NCBI GenBank assembly: GCA_016868295.1
Contig: VGHJ01000009.1
Location: 901-64,900 of the forward strand
From: Betaproteobacteria bacterium
GTDB taxonomy: Bacteria; Pseudomonadota; Gammaproteobacteria; Burkholderiales; Rhodocyclaceae
Length of the DNA: 64,000 nucleotides
Reading direction: 5' to 3'
Of the stretch, positions 1-6,528 are shown piece after piece. The translations under genes were made by a program, and so were the position numbers. Below the pieces are notes generated by a model, which searched no databases, had not been told where the DNA came from, and saw only the letters and a program-made list of their open reading frames with translations. The first letter of the stretch is position 1. Every line of letters begins with the position of its first letter.

Positions 1-338
1 GGGCGGCCGGAGAAGTCGACCACCACGCGCGACAGCGCCTCGTCGAGCGGCACGTAGGCATGCCCGTAGCGGCGGATGCCCTTCTTCTCGCCGACGGCCT
101 TCGCCAGCGCCTGGCCGATCGTGATGCCGACGTCCTCGACCGTGTGGTGGGCGTCGATGTGCAGGTCGCCCCTTGCCGTGACCTCGAGATCGATCATGCC
201 GTGGCGCGCCACCTGGTCGAGCATGTGCTCGAGGAAGGGCACGCCCGTGGCCAGCTTGGCCTGGCCGCTGCCGTCGAGATTGAGGCGGACGATGATCTCC
301 GTCTCCAGGGTCTTGCGCGAGATTTCGGCTTGCCGCAT
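1..338 (-). CDS. hisB: Imidazoleglycerol-phosphate dehydratase (3' end outside window)
   Basis: Manual translation [13 protein letters not shown]...[15 protein letters not shown]...[13 protein letters not shown]; HHxxED motif. Confidence 0.95.
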
Positions 339-414
339 GGCGGTCGCTACGACGTTAAAAGTGATTCAGGACTGCATGATAACATTGGATTTTCCCTCTG
401 AGCACCGCCCTGGC

Positions 415-1473
415 ATGAGCCGTTTCTGGAGCGCCGTCGTCGGCAAGCTGACCCCCTACGTTCCGGGCGAGCAGCCGAAGCTGCCCAACCTGGTCAAGCT
501 GAACACCAACGAGAACCCCTATGGCCCCTCGCCCAAGGTGCTCGAGGCCCTGCGTGCCGAGACCGGCGACACCCTGCGTCTCTACCCCGATCCGAATGCC
601 GACCGCCTCAAGGAGGCCGTCGCCGGCTATTTCGGCGTGACGCCGAAGCAGGTCTTCGTCGGCAACGGCTCGGACGAGGTGCTCGCCCACGTCTTCCTCG
701 GCCTGCTCAAGCACGAAAAGCCGGTGCTCTTCCCGGACATCACCTACAGCTTCTACCCGGTGTATTGCGGGCTCTACGACGTCGCATTCGAGACCGTGCC
801 GCTGACGGAGACCTTCGAGATCCGTCCTGCGGACTACGCGCGGCCCAACGGCGGCATCATTTTTCCCAACCCGAACGCGCCGACCGGCCGCGCCCTAGCG
901 CTGGGGGACATCGAGCAGATCCTCGCCGCCAACCCGGATTCGGTCGTGGTGGTGGACGAGGCCTACGTCGATTTCGGCGCCGAGACGGCGGTGCCGCTGA
1001 TCGATCGCCACCCGAACCTGCTGGTGGTGCAGACGCTCTCCAAGTCGCGCTCCCTGGCCGGGCTGCGCGTCGGCTTCGCCGTCGGCCACGAAGACCTCAT
1101 CGAGGCGCTGGAGCGGGTGAAGAACAGCTTCAACTCCTATCCCCTCGACCGCCTCGCCATCGCCGGCGCCGTGGCGGCGATGGAGGATCGCGCCCACTAC
1201 GAGCAGACGCGCCAGGCCGTCATCAAGAGCCGCGAGGCACTGGTCAAGGAACTGGCCGCCCTCGGCTTCGAGGTGCTGCCCTCCGCAGCCAACTTCATCT
1301 TCACCCGCCACCCGCAACGCGACGCAGGCGAGCTCGCCGCCGCCCTGCGGAGCCGCAGCATCATCGTCCGCCACTTCCGCCTGCCACGCATCGAGCAGTT
1401 CCTGCGAATCACGGTAGGGACGGATATGCAGTGCAAGACGCTCACCGCAGCGCTGAGGGATATCCTCAGCTAA
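415..1473 (+). CDS. hisC: Histidinol-phosphate aminotransferase
   Basis: MSRFWS...[45 protein letters not shown] (PLP lysine). Confidence 0.95.
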
Positions 1474-1535
1474 ACTTCAAATAACCCATTGTCCATATAA
1501 CGAACGCGCCCATCAACGCGGGAGGTTTGGCGTAG

Positions 1536-2216
1536 TTATCGGATCAGCCCTAGCTCGGTCACTACTTTTTCAACGTGCGGTAACCAGATCCTAGCATCCT
1601 GTATTACCCCTTCAAGAAACCCCGCTTCAATCTCGATGCTATCGCCAAGAAAATTTTGATTGGTAACTTGAATCCCCTGTAGCGCTGCGACCGCTTGACG
1701 TAGTTGCTCATGATGTTGATACGACTGCAACAACCCCGCCGCATGAACGATACAGTTTCGGACGTGAATCAGTTTTTCCAGAAGCTGAATTTTCACATCC
1801 AATTTGAGGATTGCCTTATCGTTGAATATATTTAAAGTGTAAACCGCTTCATTTACCTTCTCCGGCCTTTTCGGAAACGTGAAGCATGCGCGTTTCTTCA
1901 GTATCAGCAGCAACCACTCGATTGTAGTAATAAGCGCAACTAGCGCCGCGTACCGAACCCGTTGCCTTAAGCTCACCTCAAACCGATACTCAACGCCTTG
2001 AAGCACTTGATCGCGATATTGCGCTTCCATCCCGGGCTCTTCGAACTCTACACTGCTGCATTCTTGCTCAGCACGTCTAAGTTCTCTTCTCTTTTGCCAT
2101 CCAATATTGCTTTCTGAGAATTCAATAAAGTCTTCGAGATCCCCAAGCATTGCTAAGGTATCGAGACCATAGAATGTCTGGTCAAGCAGCGCAGTGAGGT
2201 CGATCTGGGAAGCCAT
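1536..2216 (-). CDS. Hypothetical protein, probable HEPN-family RNase
   Basis: R-x4-H motif (VRNCIVH) in a helical ~226-aa protein; AT-richer than flanks; alternative TTG start at 2225. Confidence 0.55.
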   Translation of the reverse strand: MASQIDLTALLDQTFYGLDTLAMLGDLEDFIEFSESNIGWQKRRELRRAEQECSSVEFEEPGMEAQYRDQVLQGVEYRFEVSLRQRVRYAALVALITTIEWLLLILKKRACFTFPKRPEKVNEAVYTLNIFNDKAILKLDVKIQLLEKLIHVRNCIVHAAGLLQSYQHHEQLRQAVAALQGIQVTNQNFLGDSIEIEAGFLEGVIQDARIWLPHVEKVVTELGLIR

Positions 2217-2242
2217 GTCACCCAAGGAGTTGAAGTTATTCT

Positions 2243-2935
2243 CTAGCTCCTCCAGTTAAGGGGATTACCGTCACCACGCATGTCACCGGACACCTGCGCC
2301 AGATTGAAATCGATCCGGATTTGACGAATAACGCGTTGCGGGCCGGCCGAGGAACCTAGAACGCGAATTGCTTCGTTAAGTGCCTTCGCCGCCGCCTTGT
2401 TCCCGCTTCCAATAAGCTCACGAGCGAAATCCAACAACTGTGGGTCGCTTCCAAAATACAACTTGAGAAAATCAGATTCCATCGTTTGAGCGAGCTTTAC
2501 CCGATCAGCAAAAACCTTCGCCTCCAACAGGTATGCACGATAAGTGTTCGCAAGGCGCCATGAGATCCTTGCGAGCCGGGAGTTGAGTTCAAGAAGGTCA
2601 GGATAATACTTGAGAGCAACACTCCAATCCCGCATGAGAGGATCGGAGCCAGTAGGCTCGGCACTTGCATCATCGGCAAAATATGGATCGCTAGCAGATG
2701 CATTTGATCCCCTTAGATCATCATACTTGCTCCGCATAACAGGGTCAGATAGAACCTGATACGCTTCATTGATTTCGCTCATACGGCGATTCGCTTCGTT
2801 CTCAGAGCCAGTAAATCTATCTGGATGATACCGCTGAGCGAGTGCCCTGTATGCTGCGCGGATTACAACATCTTCTGCGTTTGGCAGTACCCCAAGAACA
2901 GCGTAGTAGTCTATTGTTGGATCCATGATCTTCAT
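2243..2935 (-). CDS. J-domain (DnaJ-like) protein with unknown C-terminal domain
   Basis: DYYAVLGV...YRALAQRYHPDR...INEAYQVLSDP; HPD motif; AT-richer. Confidence 0.85.
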   Translation of the reverse strand: MKIMDPTIDYYAVLGVLPNAEDVVIRAAYRALAQRYHPDRFTGSENEANRRMSEINEAYQVLSDPVMRSKYDDLRGSNASASDPYFADDASAEPTGSDPLMRDWSVALKYYPDLLELNSRLARISWRLANTYRAYLLEAKVFADRVKLAQTMESDFLKLYFGSDPQLLDFARELIGSGNKAAAKALNEAIRVLGSSAGPQRVIRQIRIDFNLAQVSGDMRGDGNPLNWRS

Positions 2936-3231
2936 CCGCGATGCGCTTCGGCATGCAGCTTCAAGCCGAGAGCGTGCACAACCTTGAGGATGGTGTCGAA
3001 GCCCGGGCTGCGTTCGCCGGAGAGCGCCTTGTACAGGCTTTCGCGCGAGAGGCCCGCATCGCGCGCGACCTGCGCCATGCCCTTGGCGCGCGCGATGTCG
3101 CCGAGCGCCTTGGCGATAAAGGCCGCATCGCCGTTCGCCTCCTCCATGCAGGCTTCTAGATAGGCCGCCATTTCCTCCGTGGTGCGGAGATGTTCGGCGA
3201 CATCGTAGCGGGTGGTCTTGGTTATTTTCAT
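2932..3231 (-). CDS. Addiction-module antitoxin, HTH (HigA-like)
   Basis: YDVAEHL...ALGDIARAKGMAQVARDAGLSRESLYKALSGERSPGFDTILKV; AGGA RBS upstream. Confidence 0.9.
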   Translation of the reverse strand: MKITKTTRYDVAEHLRTTEEMAAYLEACMEEANGDAAFIAKALGDIARAKGMAQVARDAGLSRESLYKALSGERSPGFDTILKVVHALGLKLHAEAHRG

Positions 3232-3239
3232 CGTCATTC

Positions 3240-3530
3240 CTAAAGGTTGCGGGCGAGGCGCAAGGCAGTCTTGATGTCGCTGGCCTGGCTGCTCTTGTCG
3301 CCGCCAGCCAACAGGATGATCAGCTCTCTTCCGCGCTTTCTGAAATACACCCGGTAACCGGGGCCGTAATCGATCCGTAATTCCGAGACGCCCTCCCCGA
3401 CCGGCTTGACGTCTCCGGGGTTGCCCGCCGCCAGCCGTTCGATCCTCGCCTGGACGCGCGCCCTCGCGTGAATGTCGCGCAGACCGTCCAGCCACACGGC
3501 GAAGACCTCCGTCTTGCGGATTTCGATCAT
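3240..3530 (-). CDS. RelE/HigB-family addiction-module killer toxin
   Basis: WLDGLRD...GNPGDVKPVGEGVSELRIDYGPGYRVYF...LLAGGDKSSQ; upstream of HTH antitoxin. Confidence 0.9.
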   Translation of the reverse strand: MIEIRKTEVFAVWLDGLRDIHARARVQARIERLAAGNPGDVKPVGEGVSELRIDYGPGYRVYFRKRGRELIILLAGGDKSSQASDIKTALRLARNL

Positions 3531-3538
3531 AGAGTAAC

Positions 3539-3556
3539 TGTAGCCGCGCGGCTACA
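3539..3556. promoter_or_regulatory. Perfect 18-bp palindrome, probable TA autorepression operator
   Basis: TGTAGCCGC/GCGGCTACA, 8 bp upstream of toxin start. Confidence 0.75.
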
Positions 3557-3575
3557 CATTGTCAATGAAATGAAT

Positions 3576-3600
3576 CGCCGTATCGCAGCGACTGACTTTT
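3576..3600 (-). repeat. Dispersed motif AGTCAGTC-N8-ACGGCG, exact copy
   Basis: Reverse complement reads aaaagtcagtcgctgcgatacggcg. Confidence 0.9.
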
Positions 3601-3630
3601 CCCCCGACGATTCGGAAGCAAAGGAGGAGC

Positions 3631-3807
3631 GGGCCAAGGGCGAGGCTGCCGCCGATTTCGCGGCCGCCGCCGCGGCGGCGCGCTCGCCGGGGATGTCCGG
3701 GCCTGCTGTCCGAGCGCAGCGAGTTTGCAGGCCCGGCCGGCGGGCGCGACGACGCAAGGGCACCCGCAGGGCGGCCGCGCATGAGGCGGCAGCTTCGCCC
3801 TTGGCCC
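3631..3807. repeat. ~177-bp nested inverted-repeat element (MITE/REPIN-like or structured RNA)
   Basis: 23-bp arms 3631-3653 and 3785-3807 (1 G.T mismatch) plus three inner complementary pairs. Confidence 0.7.
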
Positions 3808-3830
3808 ACGGGCAGAGAGTACGAAAGGGT

Positions 3831-4124
3831 TTAAGCAGCGGCCAGCTTGAAATTGATCGTCTTGCCGAGCGCGGCCGCGGCGCTCGCCAGCGTGGTCAGG
3901 GTCAGGCTGGTATCTTCCTCGTCGAGCAGGCGATTCAGCGCGGCGCGGCTGGTGTGCATGCGCTTCGCCAGCTCGGTCTTGGTGATCTTCTGGTGCTTCA
4001 TTTCCTCGGCGATCTGCCAGGCGATCACCCGCTTGATCGCAACGGCGGTGGCATCCTCGAGCATCGCCTGCTCCATGAGGAAATCATCGAAATTGCTGCC
4101 GATGTTTTTCTTGCCCATGCTCAT
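3831..4124 (-). CDS. XRE-family HTH antitoxin
   Basis: NIGSNFDDFL...ITKTELAKRMHTSRAALNRLLD...LTLTTL; ATGA overlap with toxin stop. Confidence 0.85.
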   Translation of the reverse strand: MSMGKKNIGSNFDDFLMEQAMLEDATAVAIKRVIAWQIAEEMKHQKITKTELAKRMHTSRAALNRLLDEEDTSLTLTTLASAAAALGKTINFKLAAA

Positions 4125-4462
4125 CTCCGTCTCAACTGTTTCAGCCGATCCCGGGCCAGATCGAGATCGGATTTGGGGGTGGCCTGCTGCTTTTTGATGA
4201 AACCGTGCAGGAGCACCATGATTTGTCCGTCCAGTGCGAACAGCACGCGGGCGATGCGGTTGTCCAGCCTGATCCGCACCTCCCATATGTCGCCCGTCAG
4301 GTGATCGACCAGCGGCATGCCGAGCGGCCAGCCGAACTGCACCGTCTTGATGTTCTCGCCGATGGTCTTGCGCTCTGCGGCCGGCAGTTCCTTCAGCCAA
4401 TCCCGAACGGGTTCGGCACCGGCATCGGTCCGAAAGAAGCGCACGTCCAGGACGGGTTTCAT
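4121..4462 (-). CDS. RelE-like toxin (Gp49/DUF891 type)
   Basis: FFRTDAGAEPVRDWL...QFGWPLGMP...IWEVR...VLLHGFIKKQQATP. Confidence 0.85.
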   Translation of the reverse strand: MKPVLDVRFFRTDAGAEPVRDWLKELPAAERKTIGENIKTVQFGWPLGMPLVDHLTGDIWEVRIRLDNRIARVLFALDGQIMVLLHGFIKKQQATPKSDLDLARDRLKQLRRR

Positions 4463-4469
4463 GGGCAGC

Positions 4470-4491
4470 AATGTACCAATATTGGTACATT
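4470..4491. promoter_or_regulatory. Perfect 22-bp palindrome, probable TA operator
   Basis: AATGTACCAAT/ATTGGTACATT, 7 bp upstream of toxin start. Confidence 0.8.
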
Positions 4492-4524
4492 TGCGCAAGG
4501 GACTGCAGGAACTGCAGGCGAGAC

Positions 4525-5823
4525 TCAGCCCTTTTTCAGGCGCAATTCCGCCGCCCGTGCGTGGGCCTGCAGGCCCTCGCCATGGGCGAGCGTCGAGGCG
4601 ATGCGGCCGAGCTTGTCGGCGCCGCCGGCCGAGACCTCGATGATCGAGGTGCGCTTCTGGAAATCGTAGACGCCGAGCGGCGAGGAGAAGCGCGCGCTGC
4701 GCGAGGTCGGCAGCACGTGGTTCGGCCCGGCGCAGTAGTCGCCGAGCGATTCCGAGGTGTAGCGGCCGACGAAGATGGCGCCGGCGTGGCGGATCCTGTC
4801 CACCAGCGCGTTCGGCTCGGCCACGGAGAGTTCGAGGTGCTCCGGCGCGATGCGGTTGGCGATGGTGCAGGCTTCCTCGAGGTCGCGCACCTCGATCAGC
4901 GCGCCACGCCCGGCGAGGGAAGCCGAGATCACGTCCTTGCGCGGCATCTCCGGCAGCAGGCGGGCGAGGCTGTGCGCCACCGCGTCGATGAAGCGCAGGT
5001 CCGGGCAGAGCAGGATCGACTGCGCCAGCTCGTCGTGCTCGGCCTGGGCGAAGAGGTCCATCGCCACCCAGTCCGGATCGGTCGAGCCGTCGGCGATGAC
5101 CAGCACCTCCGAGGGACCGGCCACCATATCGATGCCGACCACGCCGAAGACGCGCCGCTTGGCGGCTGCGACGTAGGCGTTGCCGGGACCGACGATCTTG
5201 TCCACCTGCGGGATGGTCTGCGTGCCGTAGGCCAGCGCGCCCACCGCCTGCGCGCCGCCCAGGGTGAACACGCGGTCGACGCCGGCGAGCGCCGCCGCGG
5301 CCAGCACCAGGGCGTTCTTCTCGCCGCGCGGCGTCGGCACCGTCATGATCAGTTCGCCGACGCCGGCCACCTTGGCCGGGATCGCGTTCATCAGCACCGA
5401 GCTGGGATAGGCCGCCTTGCCGCCCGGCACGTAGAGGCCGACGCGGTCGAGCGGCGTCACCTTCTGGCCGAGGCGCGTGCCGTCGGCCTCGGTGTACTCC
5501 CAGGAGGCGGCGAGCTGCTTCTGGTGATACAGGGCGATGCGCGTGGCGGCCTGCTCCAGCGCCTCGCGCTGTTCGGCCGGCAGGTTGAACAGCGCCGCTT
5601 CCAGTTCGCGCTTGGGCAATTCGAGTTCGACCATGGCCTTCGCCTGCAGGTGGTCGAAGCGGCGCGTGTATTCCAGCACGGCTGCGTCGCCGACGGTACG
5701 CACCGCCATGAGGATCTCCGCCACCGCCTGCTCGATGCTGTCGTCCTGGGCGTTCTCGAAGGCCAGCAGCGCGGCAAGCTGCTGGGTGAAATCCGGGTCG
5801 CGGGTGGTGAGGCGCTTAATCAC
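4525..5823 (-). CDS. hisD: Histidinol dehydrogenase
   Basis: [47 protein letters not shown]. Confidence 0.97.
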
Positions 5824-6460
5824 GGACGGCTCCGGCGAAGGCGTCGATGACGGGCTGCAGCAGTTCGCGCTTCATCTTCAGCGAGGCCTGGTTCACGATC
5901 AGGCGCGAGGAGATCGGCATGATGTCCTCCACCGCCACGAGGTTGTTGGCCTTCAGCGTGTTGCCGCTCGAGACGAGGTCGACGATGGCGTCGGCCAAGC
6001 CGACCAGCGGCGCCAGCTCCATCGAGCCGTAGAGCTTGATCAGGTCGACATGCACGCCCTTGTCGGCGAAGTGCTCGCGCGCTGTCTGGATGTACTTGGT
6101 CGCCACGCGCAGGCGCGCGCCGCGGCGCACGGCGGCGGCGTAGTCGAAGCCGTTGGGCACCGCCACCGCCATGCGGCAGCGGGCGATCTTGAGATCCAGC
6201 GGCTGGTAGAGGCCGGCGCCGCCGTGTTCGATCAGCACGTCCTTGCCGGCGATGCCGAGGTCGGCGGCGCCGTACTGCACGTAGGTCGGCGTGTCCGAGG
6301 CGCGCACGATGACCAGGCGCACGTCGGCGCGGTTGGTATCGAGGATGAGCTTGCGCGAGGTCTCCGGATCGTCGGCCGGCACGATGCCCGCTGCCGCCAA
6401 GAGCGGCAGGGTTTCCTCGAAGATGCGGCCCTTGGAGAGGGCGATGGTGATGCCGGTCAC
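5816..6460 (-). CDS. hisG: ATP phosphoribosyltransferase, short form
   Basis: [54 protein letters not shown]. Confidence 0.96.
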
Positions 6461-6503
6461 GGCACTTTTCCAATCATTAAAAAAACATGATTTTACCGCA
6501 GAC

Positions 6504-6528
6504 AAAAGTCAGTCCCTGCGGGACGGCG
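6504..6528 (+). repeat. Dispersed motif AGTCAGTC-N8-ACGGCG, exact copy (murA-hisG intergenic)
   Basis: aaaagtcagtccctgcgggacggcg; identical to 27639-27663. Confidence 0.9.

Follow-up and report, generated by a model that had tools for sequence, protein, structure and literature searches.

A toxin-antitoxin pair followed by compositionally foreign J-domain and HEPN-like genes in a cargo slot beside hisC

Introduction

Toxin-antitoxin (TA) pairs of the HI1419/HI1420 type, in which the toxin is Gp49/DUF891-like, are described by the curated models TIGR02683 and TIGR02684. In toxin-antitoxin-chaperone (TAC) systems, a TA pair of the HigB, HicA or MqsR type is accompanied by a SecB-like chaperone (PMC5105189, PMC6377645). 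In HEPN domains, core helix 3 ends in an Rx4-6H motif that leads into the loop to helix 4, and helix 2 carries a conserved acidic residue near this motif; sacsin has such a domain at its C-terminus, directly behind a J domain (PMC3710099). Here we analyse a 2-kb block from a stretch of 64,000 nucleotides of a Rhodocyclaceae genome (the window), in which a TA pair is followed by a J-domain gene and by a gene for a HEPN-like protein. The block had been proposed, from its sequence, as a candidate defence module.

Organization of the locus

Four co-oriented genes lie on the minus strand of the window under a single promoter, and a palindromic operator is located upstream of them all, just as the original prediction had it. 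The first encodes a toxin of the RelE/ParE superfamily, HI1419 / Gp49-HigB-like type (3240-3530, 96 aa), and is separated by 8 nt from the gene for an XRE-type helix-turn-helix (HTH) antitoxin of the HI1420 type (2932-3231, 99 aa). They are followed by the J-domain protein gene (2243-2935, 230 aa, or 227 aa if the start is Met4, position 2926) and by the HEPN-like gene, which encodes a putative RNase (1536-2216, 226 aa). The sigma-70-type promoter of the TA operon (3537-3565, minus strand), composed of a -35 box TTGACA at 3565-3560, a 17-nt spacer and a -10 box TACAGT extending to 3537, is the best-scoring site of the region (10 of 12 matches), and its -35 box is kept in all seven aligned TA loci that cover that position. 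The palindrome TGTAGCC-N4-GGCTACA (3539-3556) overlaps the -10 box and the spacer. Its half-sites are kept in eight out of eight loci of the TA pair, the central 4 nt being variable, and the HTH antitoxin presumably binds here as a dimer. Through this conserved operator, the antitoxin, probably together with the toxin, would repress its own promoter.

The stop codon of the antitoxin gene does overlap the first codon of the J frame as ATGA, as had been noted, although J homologues begin at a Met four codons downstream, which would place the start 5 nt past the antitoxin stop. The proposed spacing of 17-26 bp between the J and HEPN-like genes also holds, with 26 nt to the ATG used by homologues and 17 nt to an upstream TTG. 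Neither the antitoxin/J junction nor the J/HEPN junction has room for a promoter or contains a terminator-like site, which makes read-through from the TA promoter the most likely source of transcription of the last two genes. We thus infer their co-transcription with the TA pair, and depletion of the antitoxin would be expected to raise the expression of both. A search for RNA runs containing this stretch returned none. A weak terminator-like hairpin (1505-1520, minus strand; a pattern match only) is located 15 nt past the stop of the HEPN-like gene, in its convergent gap with hisC; the number of terminator-like sites in the region is not above that of shuffled sequences. A 21-nt direct repeat with 16 of 21 matches lies on either side of the entire block (1484-1504 and 3554-3574), but was not accepted as a target-site duplication because its right copy is the -35 region of the promoter and its left copy is absent from other alleles.

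The toxin-antitoxin pair

The toxin matched TIGR02683 with 134.8 bits (cut-off 62.85, E 1e-39), and also Pfam Gp49 (5e-6) and phrog_3445, annotated as "toxin" (3e-34). The antitoxin matched TIGR02684 with 126.7 bits (cut-off 53.7, E 3e-37) and, over residues 7-96, PF21716 (1.8e-30). Its C-terminus coincides with the end of the HTH domain and carries no extension. At least seven relatives in which no J gene accompanies the TA pair have an antitoxin of the same length, 99 aa, and the protein is 89% identical to the antitoxin of one other locus, L008. The toxin gene, compared with its copy in a relative (G008), shows an omega of 0.075. The pair is a self-contained, canonical type II RelE/ParE-HTH pair of the HI1419/HI1420 type.

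The last two genes are foreign and occupy a cargo slot beside hisC

Base composition separates the TA pair from the genes that follow it. GC/GC3 values are 0.64/0.84 for the toxin gene, 0.64/0.79 for the antitoxin gene, 0.50/0.49 for the J gene, 0.47/0.49 for the HEPN-like gene and 0.67/0.90 for hisC. The drop in composition that had been noted at the antitoxin stop is therefore real, GC3 falling from about 0.8 to 0.49 precisely at this point, and both the J and the HEPN-like genes are compositionally foreign in this strain. Moreover, when 40 genomes from the genus and the order were compared, only positions 2932-3567 of the window had DNA matches. A detailed alignment of five relatives places the start of these matches at 2932-2941, at the antitoxin stop or no more than 13 bases from it. 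Both the GC3 drop and this end of homology support an acquisition of the J and HEPN-like genes that was separate from that of the TA pair. The equal GC3 of the J and HEPN-like genes (0.49) fits a joint origin of the two and, as such, counts against their being independent pieces.

Both cargo genes are under purifying selection, with omega about 0.1 at dS above 1. In comparison with the L039 copies, omega was 0.075 for the J gene and 0.107 for the HEPN-like gene, from which we conclude that both are functional.

The contents of the space between the antitoxin stop and hisC differ from one relative to the next. In G008, hisC is followed by a gene for a 261-aa esterase-like protein and a repeat copy, and then by the TA pair. 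On a second contig of the same assembly (C90), a gene for a 173-aa unannotated, probably membrane protein lies between hisC and the TA pair (96% identity). The orthologous locus of a diverged relative (L039/L040) carries the J gene, the HEPN-like gene and hisC in this order, and across this locus and the window the two genes are 26-37 nt apart. Finally, at L041/L042 a repeat is followed by the J gene and directly by hisC, with neither the TA pair nor the HEPN-like gene. There the -35 box marks the exact position of the upstream breakpoint, and the J gene (80% identity) is under purifying selection. This space, bounded by the 3' end of hisC, is a slot that exchanges cargo among close relatives, and in the strain studied here it contains two foreign genes. 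That the J-HEPN pair remains intact and tightly spaced in two lineages at dS above 1 is an observation that counts against a pure mosaic.

The HEPN-like protein and its family

In a set of 1.84 billion representatives, the family of the fourth protein accounts for 202 clusters, with lengths of 215-240 aa in nearly all of them. The motif RNCIVH, which the original prediction had singled out, occupies residues 153-158, with R153 and H158 at the C-terminal end of a predicted helix (140-159). Chance alone would be expected to give one R-x4-H in a protein as large as this, and the same protein has a second one, RIWLPH; what makes RNCIVH meaningful is its conservation across the family rather than its mere presence. 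Of 63 diverse members, 61 keep the R, 57 the N and 62 the H. Position 100, in a long helix spanning 61-108, is occupied by E in 54 of these 63 and by D in another 7, and R153, N154, H158, E100, R88, Y89 and E35 are all near-invariant. A motif at a helix end, together with a conserved acidic residue in the preceding helix, is the arrangement described for HEPN domains (PMC3710099).

Profile comparisons point weakly in the same direction. The PADLOC model RTasHEPN matched the fourth protein at 3.4e-5 and 26 of 27 family members, at best at 7.5e-7, and alignment with hhalign to the RiboL-PSP HEPN family (PF18735) gave P = 1.1e-4 over 41 columns covering the motif helix. All matches to Pfam HEPN models fell below cut-off, and a search of Pfam, NCBIfam and PHROGs returned nothing over threshold. 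A sequence-profile search of the PDB gave a single match, to JmjC, which was discarded as spurious. An AF2 model of the family (pLDDT 91.7) is all-alpha, with an insert between a long hairpin and the motif helix, and Foldseek comparison of this model to the PDB and BFVD produced nothing at E below 0.07 and no HEPN entry. The assignment to HEPN thus stands on the conserved RNxxxH at a helix end, the acidic residue and the RTasHEPN matches, whereas its fold was not recovered by Foldseek. From sequence profiles and topology, the fourth gene plausibly encodes a HEPN member of a small unannotated family of about 227 aa, and we infer a putative RNase with a composite R/H active site. Such a protein could act as a self-contained toxin or abortive-infection-type effector. 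With respect to catalogued defence systems, PADLOC v2 detected only the domain-level RTasHEPN match, with no reverse transcriptase or other partner, and gave no match for the J protein.

Family members usually occur as a single low-GC gene in unrelated neighbourhoods, often by TA or defence genes. The GC content of the gene is 0.37-0.51 at 10 of 11 loci and 0.57 at the eleventh, in surroundings of 0.46-0.63; at one locus it is not below that of its surroundings. Ten genomic loci have no neighbour in common, and none of 31 metagenomic loci has a J-domain gene or this TA pair. At seven contigs, a protein of 143-155 aa with an N-terminal hydrophobic segment is encoded 8-11 nt upstream. As a Rosetta-stone test, the longer family members were scanned for a fused J domain, and none was found; in one of them, on a single contig, a RelB antitoxin domain reads through into the HEPN start. 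A docking motif common to the C-termini of the J protein and of the hydrophobic-N-terminus partner was also considered (hhalign P = 0.03), and rejected as being at chance level, with 5 of 200 column shuffles reaching this value and the motif absent in other upstream partners.

The J-domain protein

The third protein matched PF00226 with 78.6 bits over residues 9-72, and its HPD signature (H37-P38-D39) is invariant in 27 family members. It consists of an N-terminal J domain, a conserved helical middle domain (residues about 98-200) and a disordered tail. In the AF2 model, the J domain superimposes on those of DnaJ and CbpA with an RMSD of 1.1-1.4 Å, and Foldseek matched only this part of the protein, apart from weak HscB matches beyond it. 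By its domain layout it is a class-C (Hsp40) J protein, of the type predicted to work with DnaK. It would be a specialised DnaK co-chaperone, with its J domain joined to a private helical client-binding domain, from a family whose members normally stand alone: in five independent loci of more distant members there is no HEPN neighbour.

Discussion

In our view, the block is probably a 2-kb mosaic assembled from pieces that are independent of one another, with its cargo in a swapping slot, rather than one conserved four-gene defence system. Adjacency of the J and HEPN-like genes is restricted to the window and the orthologous L039/L040, being absent from about 35 HEPN-family loci and from seven J contexts that include L041/L042. 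The independent HEPN-family loci, approximately 35 in number, have no J-domain neighbour, the orthologous hisC locus of the diverged relative being the exception. Among 151 genomes of the taxonomic family, the HEPN family was found in four and the J family only in the source genome, so that the three other HEPN-carrying genomes have no J-family gene anywhere. A conserved J-HEPN or four-gene defence module, as had been proposed, is not supported, given these HEPN-family loci, the five J-family loci lacking the HEPN gene, and the occurrence of J alone at the same slot. When co-occurrence was checked, the two genes came close to never being adjacent elsewhere, the sole other pair being that of L039/L040, and since this locus is orthologous both pairs represent one event, with no independent recurrence.

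The retained pair goes beyond a recent chance event, and the two genes may have a functional partnership at this locus. The best-surviving alternative, although a doubtful one, is that the J and HEPN-like genes form a true two-gene module at this locus, in which the helical domain of J would bind the HEPN protein and hand it to DnaK. DnaK would either hold it inactive or activate it when phage infection or proteotoxic stress titrates DnaK away, which would be a bacterial split-gene counterpart of the J-HEPN tandem of sacsin. Such a module would account for two intact frames with omega about 0.1 in the window and L039/L040 at dS above 1, for the spacing of 26-37 nt with no terminator between the genes, and for their equal GC3. 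Host DnaJ, reportedly, can mediate phage sensing by a defence protein. The tight but different upstream partners of HEPN members at seven contigs would fit a variable partner combined with a HEPN effector, and the weak hhalign signal that links the hydrophobic-N-terminus partner to the C-terminal portion of the J family would also agree with it, as does the joining of DnaJ and HEPN domains in sacsin (PMC3710099). Against this, the identical slot can hold a J gene that has no HEPN beside it, is 80% identical and is kept by purifying selection; J is missing from some 35 independent loci of the HEPN family and from the whole of three other genomes of the taxonomic family that carry HEPN; the L039/L040 pair is no independent recurrence; and the shared-motif signal fell to chance level once other partners were inspected. 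A more specific version appears improbable to us: J as a dedicated adaptor delivering the HEPN RNase to DnaK, so that the availability of the chaperone would gate the RNase, which would be freed or activated when a phage takes over the cell or under proteotoxic stress. The dose of the pair, carried on the TA transcript, would rise with antitoxin degradation. This would make the two genes a chaperone-gated toxin or defence pair analogous to a split-gene sacsin, and the HEPN family one with interchangeable upstream partners, either a J protein or a small protein whose N-terminus is hydrophobic.

It is also unlikely that the fourth protein is merely helical with an RNxxxH-like motif and no catalytic HEPN RNase, for instance a regulatory or an RNA- or nucleotide-binding protein without any toxin or defence role. 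The lack of a significant Foldseek match to solved or viral structures, the below cut-off Pfam HEPN matches and the single-gene status, with no conserved antitoxin-like partner in most genomes, which is unusual for a constitutively toxic RNase, would all be in line with it. It is difficult to reconcile, however, with seven residues near-invariant in 63 diverse members, a motif position and an acidic residue in the preceding helix that fit the HEPN description, RTasHEPN matches to 26 of 27 members (down to 7.5e-7), and the alignment to RiboL-PSP HEPN (P = 1e-4 over the motif helix). Moreover, in one member the reading frame continues from a RelB antitoxin domain into the HEPN part, and three or four loci adjoin TA genes or known defence-type domains (the window, L008 and L004, and, by eye, L007).

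A tripartite TAC-like system, in which J would recruit DnaK to fold or protect the antitoxin, is highly improbable and already contradicted by the comparative data, since the gene order mirroring HigB-HigA-SecB(TA) (PMC5105189), the overlap of the J start with the antitoxin stop and the binding of DnaK to a HigB-family toxin, which raises its toxicity in P. putida (PMC7918210), are outweighed by the absence of any SecB-like gene at the locus (the third gene is a PF00226 DnaJ only), by an antitoxin that, as the original prediction had itself remarked, has no ChAD-type chaperone-addiction tail, being 99 aa long as in at least seven J-less relatives and 89% identical to that of L008, and by the occurrence of the TA pair without J in most relatives and of J without the TA pair.

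If the mosaic reading is right, an autoregulated TA pair can serve as an expression platform for cargo landing past its stop codon, and a housekeeping junction (hisC/hisD) turns into a cassette-exchange site, which is useful for annotation, if not surprising. The analysis also defines two unannotated families, both of which are candidates for domain libraries. One consists of stand-alone HEPN proteins of some 227 aa, with about 200 clusters and no model in Pfam; the members of the other join a J domain to a helical domain of their own.

Comparison with known systems

The first two genes resemble HI1419/HI1420 TA pairs in their scores well over the curated cut-offs, in being adjacent with the toxin first, in the palindromic operator within the promoter and in their mobility, being found at different sites in relatives. 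There is no essential difference, the only oddity being the foreign genes joined at the 3' end, which probably ride on the TA transcript. With TAC systems (PMC5105189, PMC6377645) the locus shares the order of toxin, antitoxin and a gene of a chaperone system, but the third gene encodes a J-domain co-chaperone instead of SecB, the ChAD extension is missing and the TA pair is autonomous in relatives. The J protein recalls class-C proteins of the HscB type, which combine a J domain with a private helical bundle and provided the weak Foldseek matches past the J domain, although its helical domain has no sequence relationship to theirs.

Like RTasHEPN of DRT systems, RiboL-PSP (PF18735) and ApeA-type single-gene HEPN families, the fourth protein is all-alpha and carries RNxxxH at a helix end, with an acidic residue on the helix before it and an insert separating the two. 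Like defence-associated HEPN families, its gene is sporadic, of low GC and located in TA or defence islets. It differs from these families in being covered by no Pfam, NCBIfam or PHROG model, in having no structural neighbour among those searched, in the great length of its N-terminal helical hairpin (residues 15-108) and in a beta-hairpin inserted behind the motif, and, unlike RTasHEPN, it is not beside a reverse transcriptase. With respect to sacsin (PMC3710099), the likeness is that of a J domain directly before a HEPN domain, in the same order, whereas here each domain has a gene of its own, the HEPN does not belong to the PF05168 type and the association is not conserved in bacteria; descent is not implied. 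Only if the J and HEPN-like proteins do work together would they bear on the question of what role a J domain plays beside a HEPN domain, as in sacsin.

Anatomy of the locus

The original prediction had described four co-oriented genes under one palindromic operator, with an ATGA overlap and a fall in base composition at the antitoxin stop, and gene matches, junctions, operator and GC3 values confirmed this observation in every detail. The four genes share the minus strand, beside hisC. The toxin (96 aa, 3240-3530) matched TIGR02683 (134.8 bits), Pfam Gp49 and the 'toxin' family phrog_3445, and the antitoxin (99 aa, 2932-3231) matched TIGR02684 (126.7 bits) and PF21716. They are followed by a J-domain protein of 230 aa (2243-2935; PF00226, 78.6 bits, residues 9-72) and by a fourth protein of 226 aa (1536-2216), which had no match in Pfam, NCBIfam or PHROG and was recognised by the PADLOC profile model RTasHEPN (3.4e-5) over residues 143-188, including the motif RNCIVH. 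The sequence does show the ATGA overlap between antitoxin and J, but homologues of the J family start at a Met four codons further on; the gap between J and the fourth gene is 26 nt, counted to the ATG used by homologues. A promoter (TTGACA-17 nt-TACAGT, 3565-3537, minus strand) precedes the toxin-antitoxin (TA) pair and contains the palindrome TGTAGCC-N4-GGCTACA (3539-3556). At eight loci of the TA pair the half-sites are kept and the central four bases vary, the predicted signature of a dimeric HTH operator. No terminator-like site was found between any of the four genes, and a weak one follows the last. GC3 is 0.84 in the toxin, 0.79 in the antitoxin and 0.49 in both J and the fourth gene, with 0.90-0.93 in hisC and hisD.

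This islet interrupts the his cluster (3-6505), with murA-hisG-hisD and hisB encoded on the minus strand and hisC (about 415-1473) on the plus strand, where it points away from hisB and towards the fourth gene; the hisB/hisC arrangement is the same in the close relative genome G008. A second, unrelated type II TA pair is encoded at 3831-4462 (minus strand), consisting of a Gp49/HigB-like toxin (4121-4462; PF05973, 8e-24) and an HTH_37/XRE antitoxin (3831-4124), with its own perfect palindrome with 13-nt arms, AATGTACCAATATTGGTACATT, at 4470-4491.

The fourth protein and the J protein

An AF2 model of the fourth protein was confident (pLDDT 91.7) and essentially all-alpha. Helices 15-55 and 61-108 form a long hairpin; after an insert that contains a short helix comes helix 140-159, with R153...H158 at its end, then a short helix with a beta-hairpin, and lastly helix 200-221. 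HEPN domains are described as a pair of alpha-hairpins, often with an insertion between helices 2 and 3 (Anantharaman et al., PMC3710099). In keeping with this description, among 63 diverse family members, R153 (61/63), N154 (57/63) and H158 (62/63) were near-invariant, as were R88, Y89 and E35, and position 100 was E in 54 and D in 7. The RTasHEPN model matched 26 of 27 members, below-threshold matches to RiboL-PSP, pEK499_p136 and Csm6-HEPN recurred, and hhalign against 15 RiboL-PSP HEPN proteins aligned the motif helix (P = 1.1e-4). The HEPN fold proposed originally was favoured by topology and profile matches but not by Foldseek, which returned nothing significant in PDB or BFVD. Membership of the HEPN superfamily is probable, and catalytic RNase function is likely to a somewhat lesser degree.

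The J protein carries a bona fide J domain, with an invariant HPD, that superposes on those of CbpA and DnaJ at 1.1-1.4 Å. A conserved helical domain, with no relatives found in PDB or Pfam, and a variable tail follow. HscB is a specialised class-C co-chaperone that carries one client to an Hsp70, and the architecture of the J protein (J domain plus helical domain) is that of such a co-chaperone.

Genomic neighbourhoods of the HEPN and J families

A word-index search recovered 147 HEPN-family homologues, nearly all of about 227 aa and, among the 120 matches listed, 53-77% identical. At 10 independent genomic loci from Thiobacillus, Rhodoferax, Litchfieldella and Sulfuricaulis (all proteobacterial) and unclassified assemblies, no J-domain gene was present, and no neighbour was shared except the TA pair, which recurs in one Rhodocyclaceae assembly (L008, 5995-7408). 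There the HEPN gene (65% identity) is directly upstream of the TA pair (84-89% identity), so that HEPN precedes toxin and antitoxin, opposite to the window, and J is absent. A metagenome scan added 31 HEPN loci (about 25 distinct; 27 with at least 500 bp upstream), all devoid of a J domain or the TA pair; most close homologues are on contigs of only 1-3 kb. From the other side, 95 proteins share the J helical domain (residues 85-230), and about 87% of this family have an N-terminal J domain; none of five independent contexts of its more distant members contained a HEPN-family gene. Within the 151 genomes of the taxonomic family, HEPN occurred in four, once as a pseudogene, and J in that of the window only.

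The closest relatives were the deciding evidence on conservation. Both genes are adjacent in L039/L040, the orthologous locus of a more distant relative (HEPN 77%, J 83-85% amino-acid identity), in the order J, 37-nt gap, HEPN, hisC 3' end. In L041/L042 (J 80%), J follows directly on a hairpin-element flank and hisC lies about 14 nt past its stop; HEPN and the TA pair are absent, and the upstream breakpoint is exactly at the TA -35 box. A further J-family gene (L043, 214-808) has an intact helical domain and lacks residues 37-66, including HPD. Either this domain may function without recruiting DnaK, or the gene may be in decay; its 2.4-kb contig carries an integrase gene and no HEPN. TA, J and HEPN are each found without the other two, also at the hisC locus itself, and these arrangements, with the genome-level counts, thus make them separable units. 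The four-gene defence module originally proposed was not supported: beyond the window, J and HEPN were adjacent only in the orthologous L039/L040 locus, so that the refuting outcome named for it, homologues never side by side in other genomes, was essentially what was observed.

Among 1.84 billion representatives, 202 clusters belong to the HEPN family, and nearly all of them are stand-alone. In 10 of 11 loci measured the gene was lower in GC than its surroundings, and it is frequently part of a small islet with TA genes or known defence-type domains: L004 has Sir2-family and HerA-type domains, L007 has genes that look antitoxin-like by eye, and the window and L008 have the TA pair described above. 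One 316-aa HEPN-family call (L065, 371-1321) has an N-terminal RelB antitoxin domain (PF04221, 3e-16) and no stop before the HEPN start; it comes from a single metagenomic contig and would be a fusion or else a RelB-HEPN TA-like pair. The most recurrent partner is a conserved upstream protein of 143-155 aa with an N-terminal hydrophobic segment, 8-11 nt away on seven contigs (L007 5525-5989; L066 119-550; L067/L068 2459-2989; also L085, L089 and L091). It carries the motif FDDPKPM...AGQADWLEKM, has no match in Pfam or PADLOC, and is a candidate two-gene module with HEPN by itself. By eye, many of the remaining upstream genes in tight linkage also seem to encode membrane-bound or secreted proteins.

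The toxin-antitoxin pair and the space behind it

When 40 genomes from the genus and order were compared with 1480-3560, similar DNA was limited to the TA pair and its promoter (2932-3567), starting at 2932-2941, at or just past the antitoxin stop, in the five relatives aligned in detail. In G008, collinear with the window, hisB-hisC (88%) and the TA pair (89%) enclose a 261-aa esterase-like gene and a copy of a GC-rich hairpin element. A second contig of the window's own assembly (C90; L034, 1-3942), evidently from a co-assembled strain, carries, between hisC (90%) and the TA pair (96%), an unannotated 173-aa protein, probably of the membrane, where the window has J-HEPN, and stops just upstream of the TA promoter (3560). 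This second hisC-TA allele indicates strain heterogeneity or co-binning in a metagenome-assembled genome. In other genera the TA pair (76-79% DNA identity) occupies unrelated sites, with or without low-GC genes behind it. Judged from these comparisons, the TA pair is a self-standing unit with a cargo slot behind it. Another order-level relative (L038, 4568-5678) provides a further example of foreign cargo behind the TA pair, where two same-strand genes of low GC (0.49), encoding 126 and 204 aa and matching no family, follow it; upstream is a 445-aa reading frame resembling, by eye, a group II intron reverse transcriptase.

The nested-hairpin element is repeated (3631-3807, between the two TA modules of the window; L033, 8864-9041 and 9764-9942; L041, 1-110). 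In G008 it stands on each side of the TA pair, and it may mark or promote cassette exchange at the hisC locus.

Interpretation and comparison with known systems

J and HEPN are real genes under selection: between the window and L039, omega was 0.107 for HEPN (dS 1.27) and 0.075 for the J helical domain (dS 1.06), and between the window and L041, pN was 0.10 and pS 0.77 for J. The reading we moderately favour is that the TA pair acts as a standard autoregulated module, and that J and HEPN would be separately mobile accessory genes that arrived in the exchange-prone slot behind it and are transcribed via read-through from its promoter. At least 11 DNA runs of lake-water metagenomes, but no RNA run, contained the locus. 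The HEPN protein would be the candidate effector, an RNase acting either as a toxin or in the manner of abortive infection, and would have to be self-limiting or activation-dependent because it usually stands alone. A lineage-specific partnership of J and HEPN, to which their retention as a pair across dS above 1 and their equal GC3 point, seems rather unlikely. The suggested analogy to a toxin-antitoxin-chaperone system is contradicted by the lack of a SecB-like gene and by the antitoxin, which, as had been rightly noted, has no C-terminal chaperone-addiction (ChAD-type) extension and is of the same length in relatives without J.

Regarding known systems, the gene order echoes sacsin, in which J lies next to HEPN (PMC3710099); the J-beside-HEPN arrangement is not conserved as a system in bacteria. 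Among the components, the TA pair is a known one, and the HEPN and J families are unannotated members of known superfamilies.
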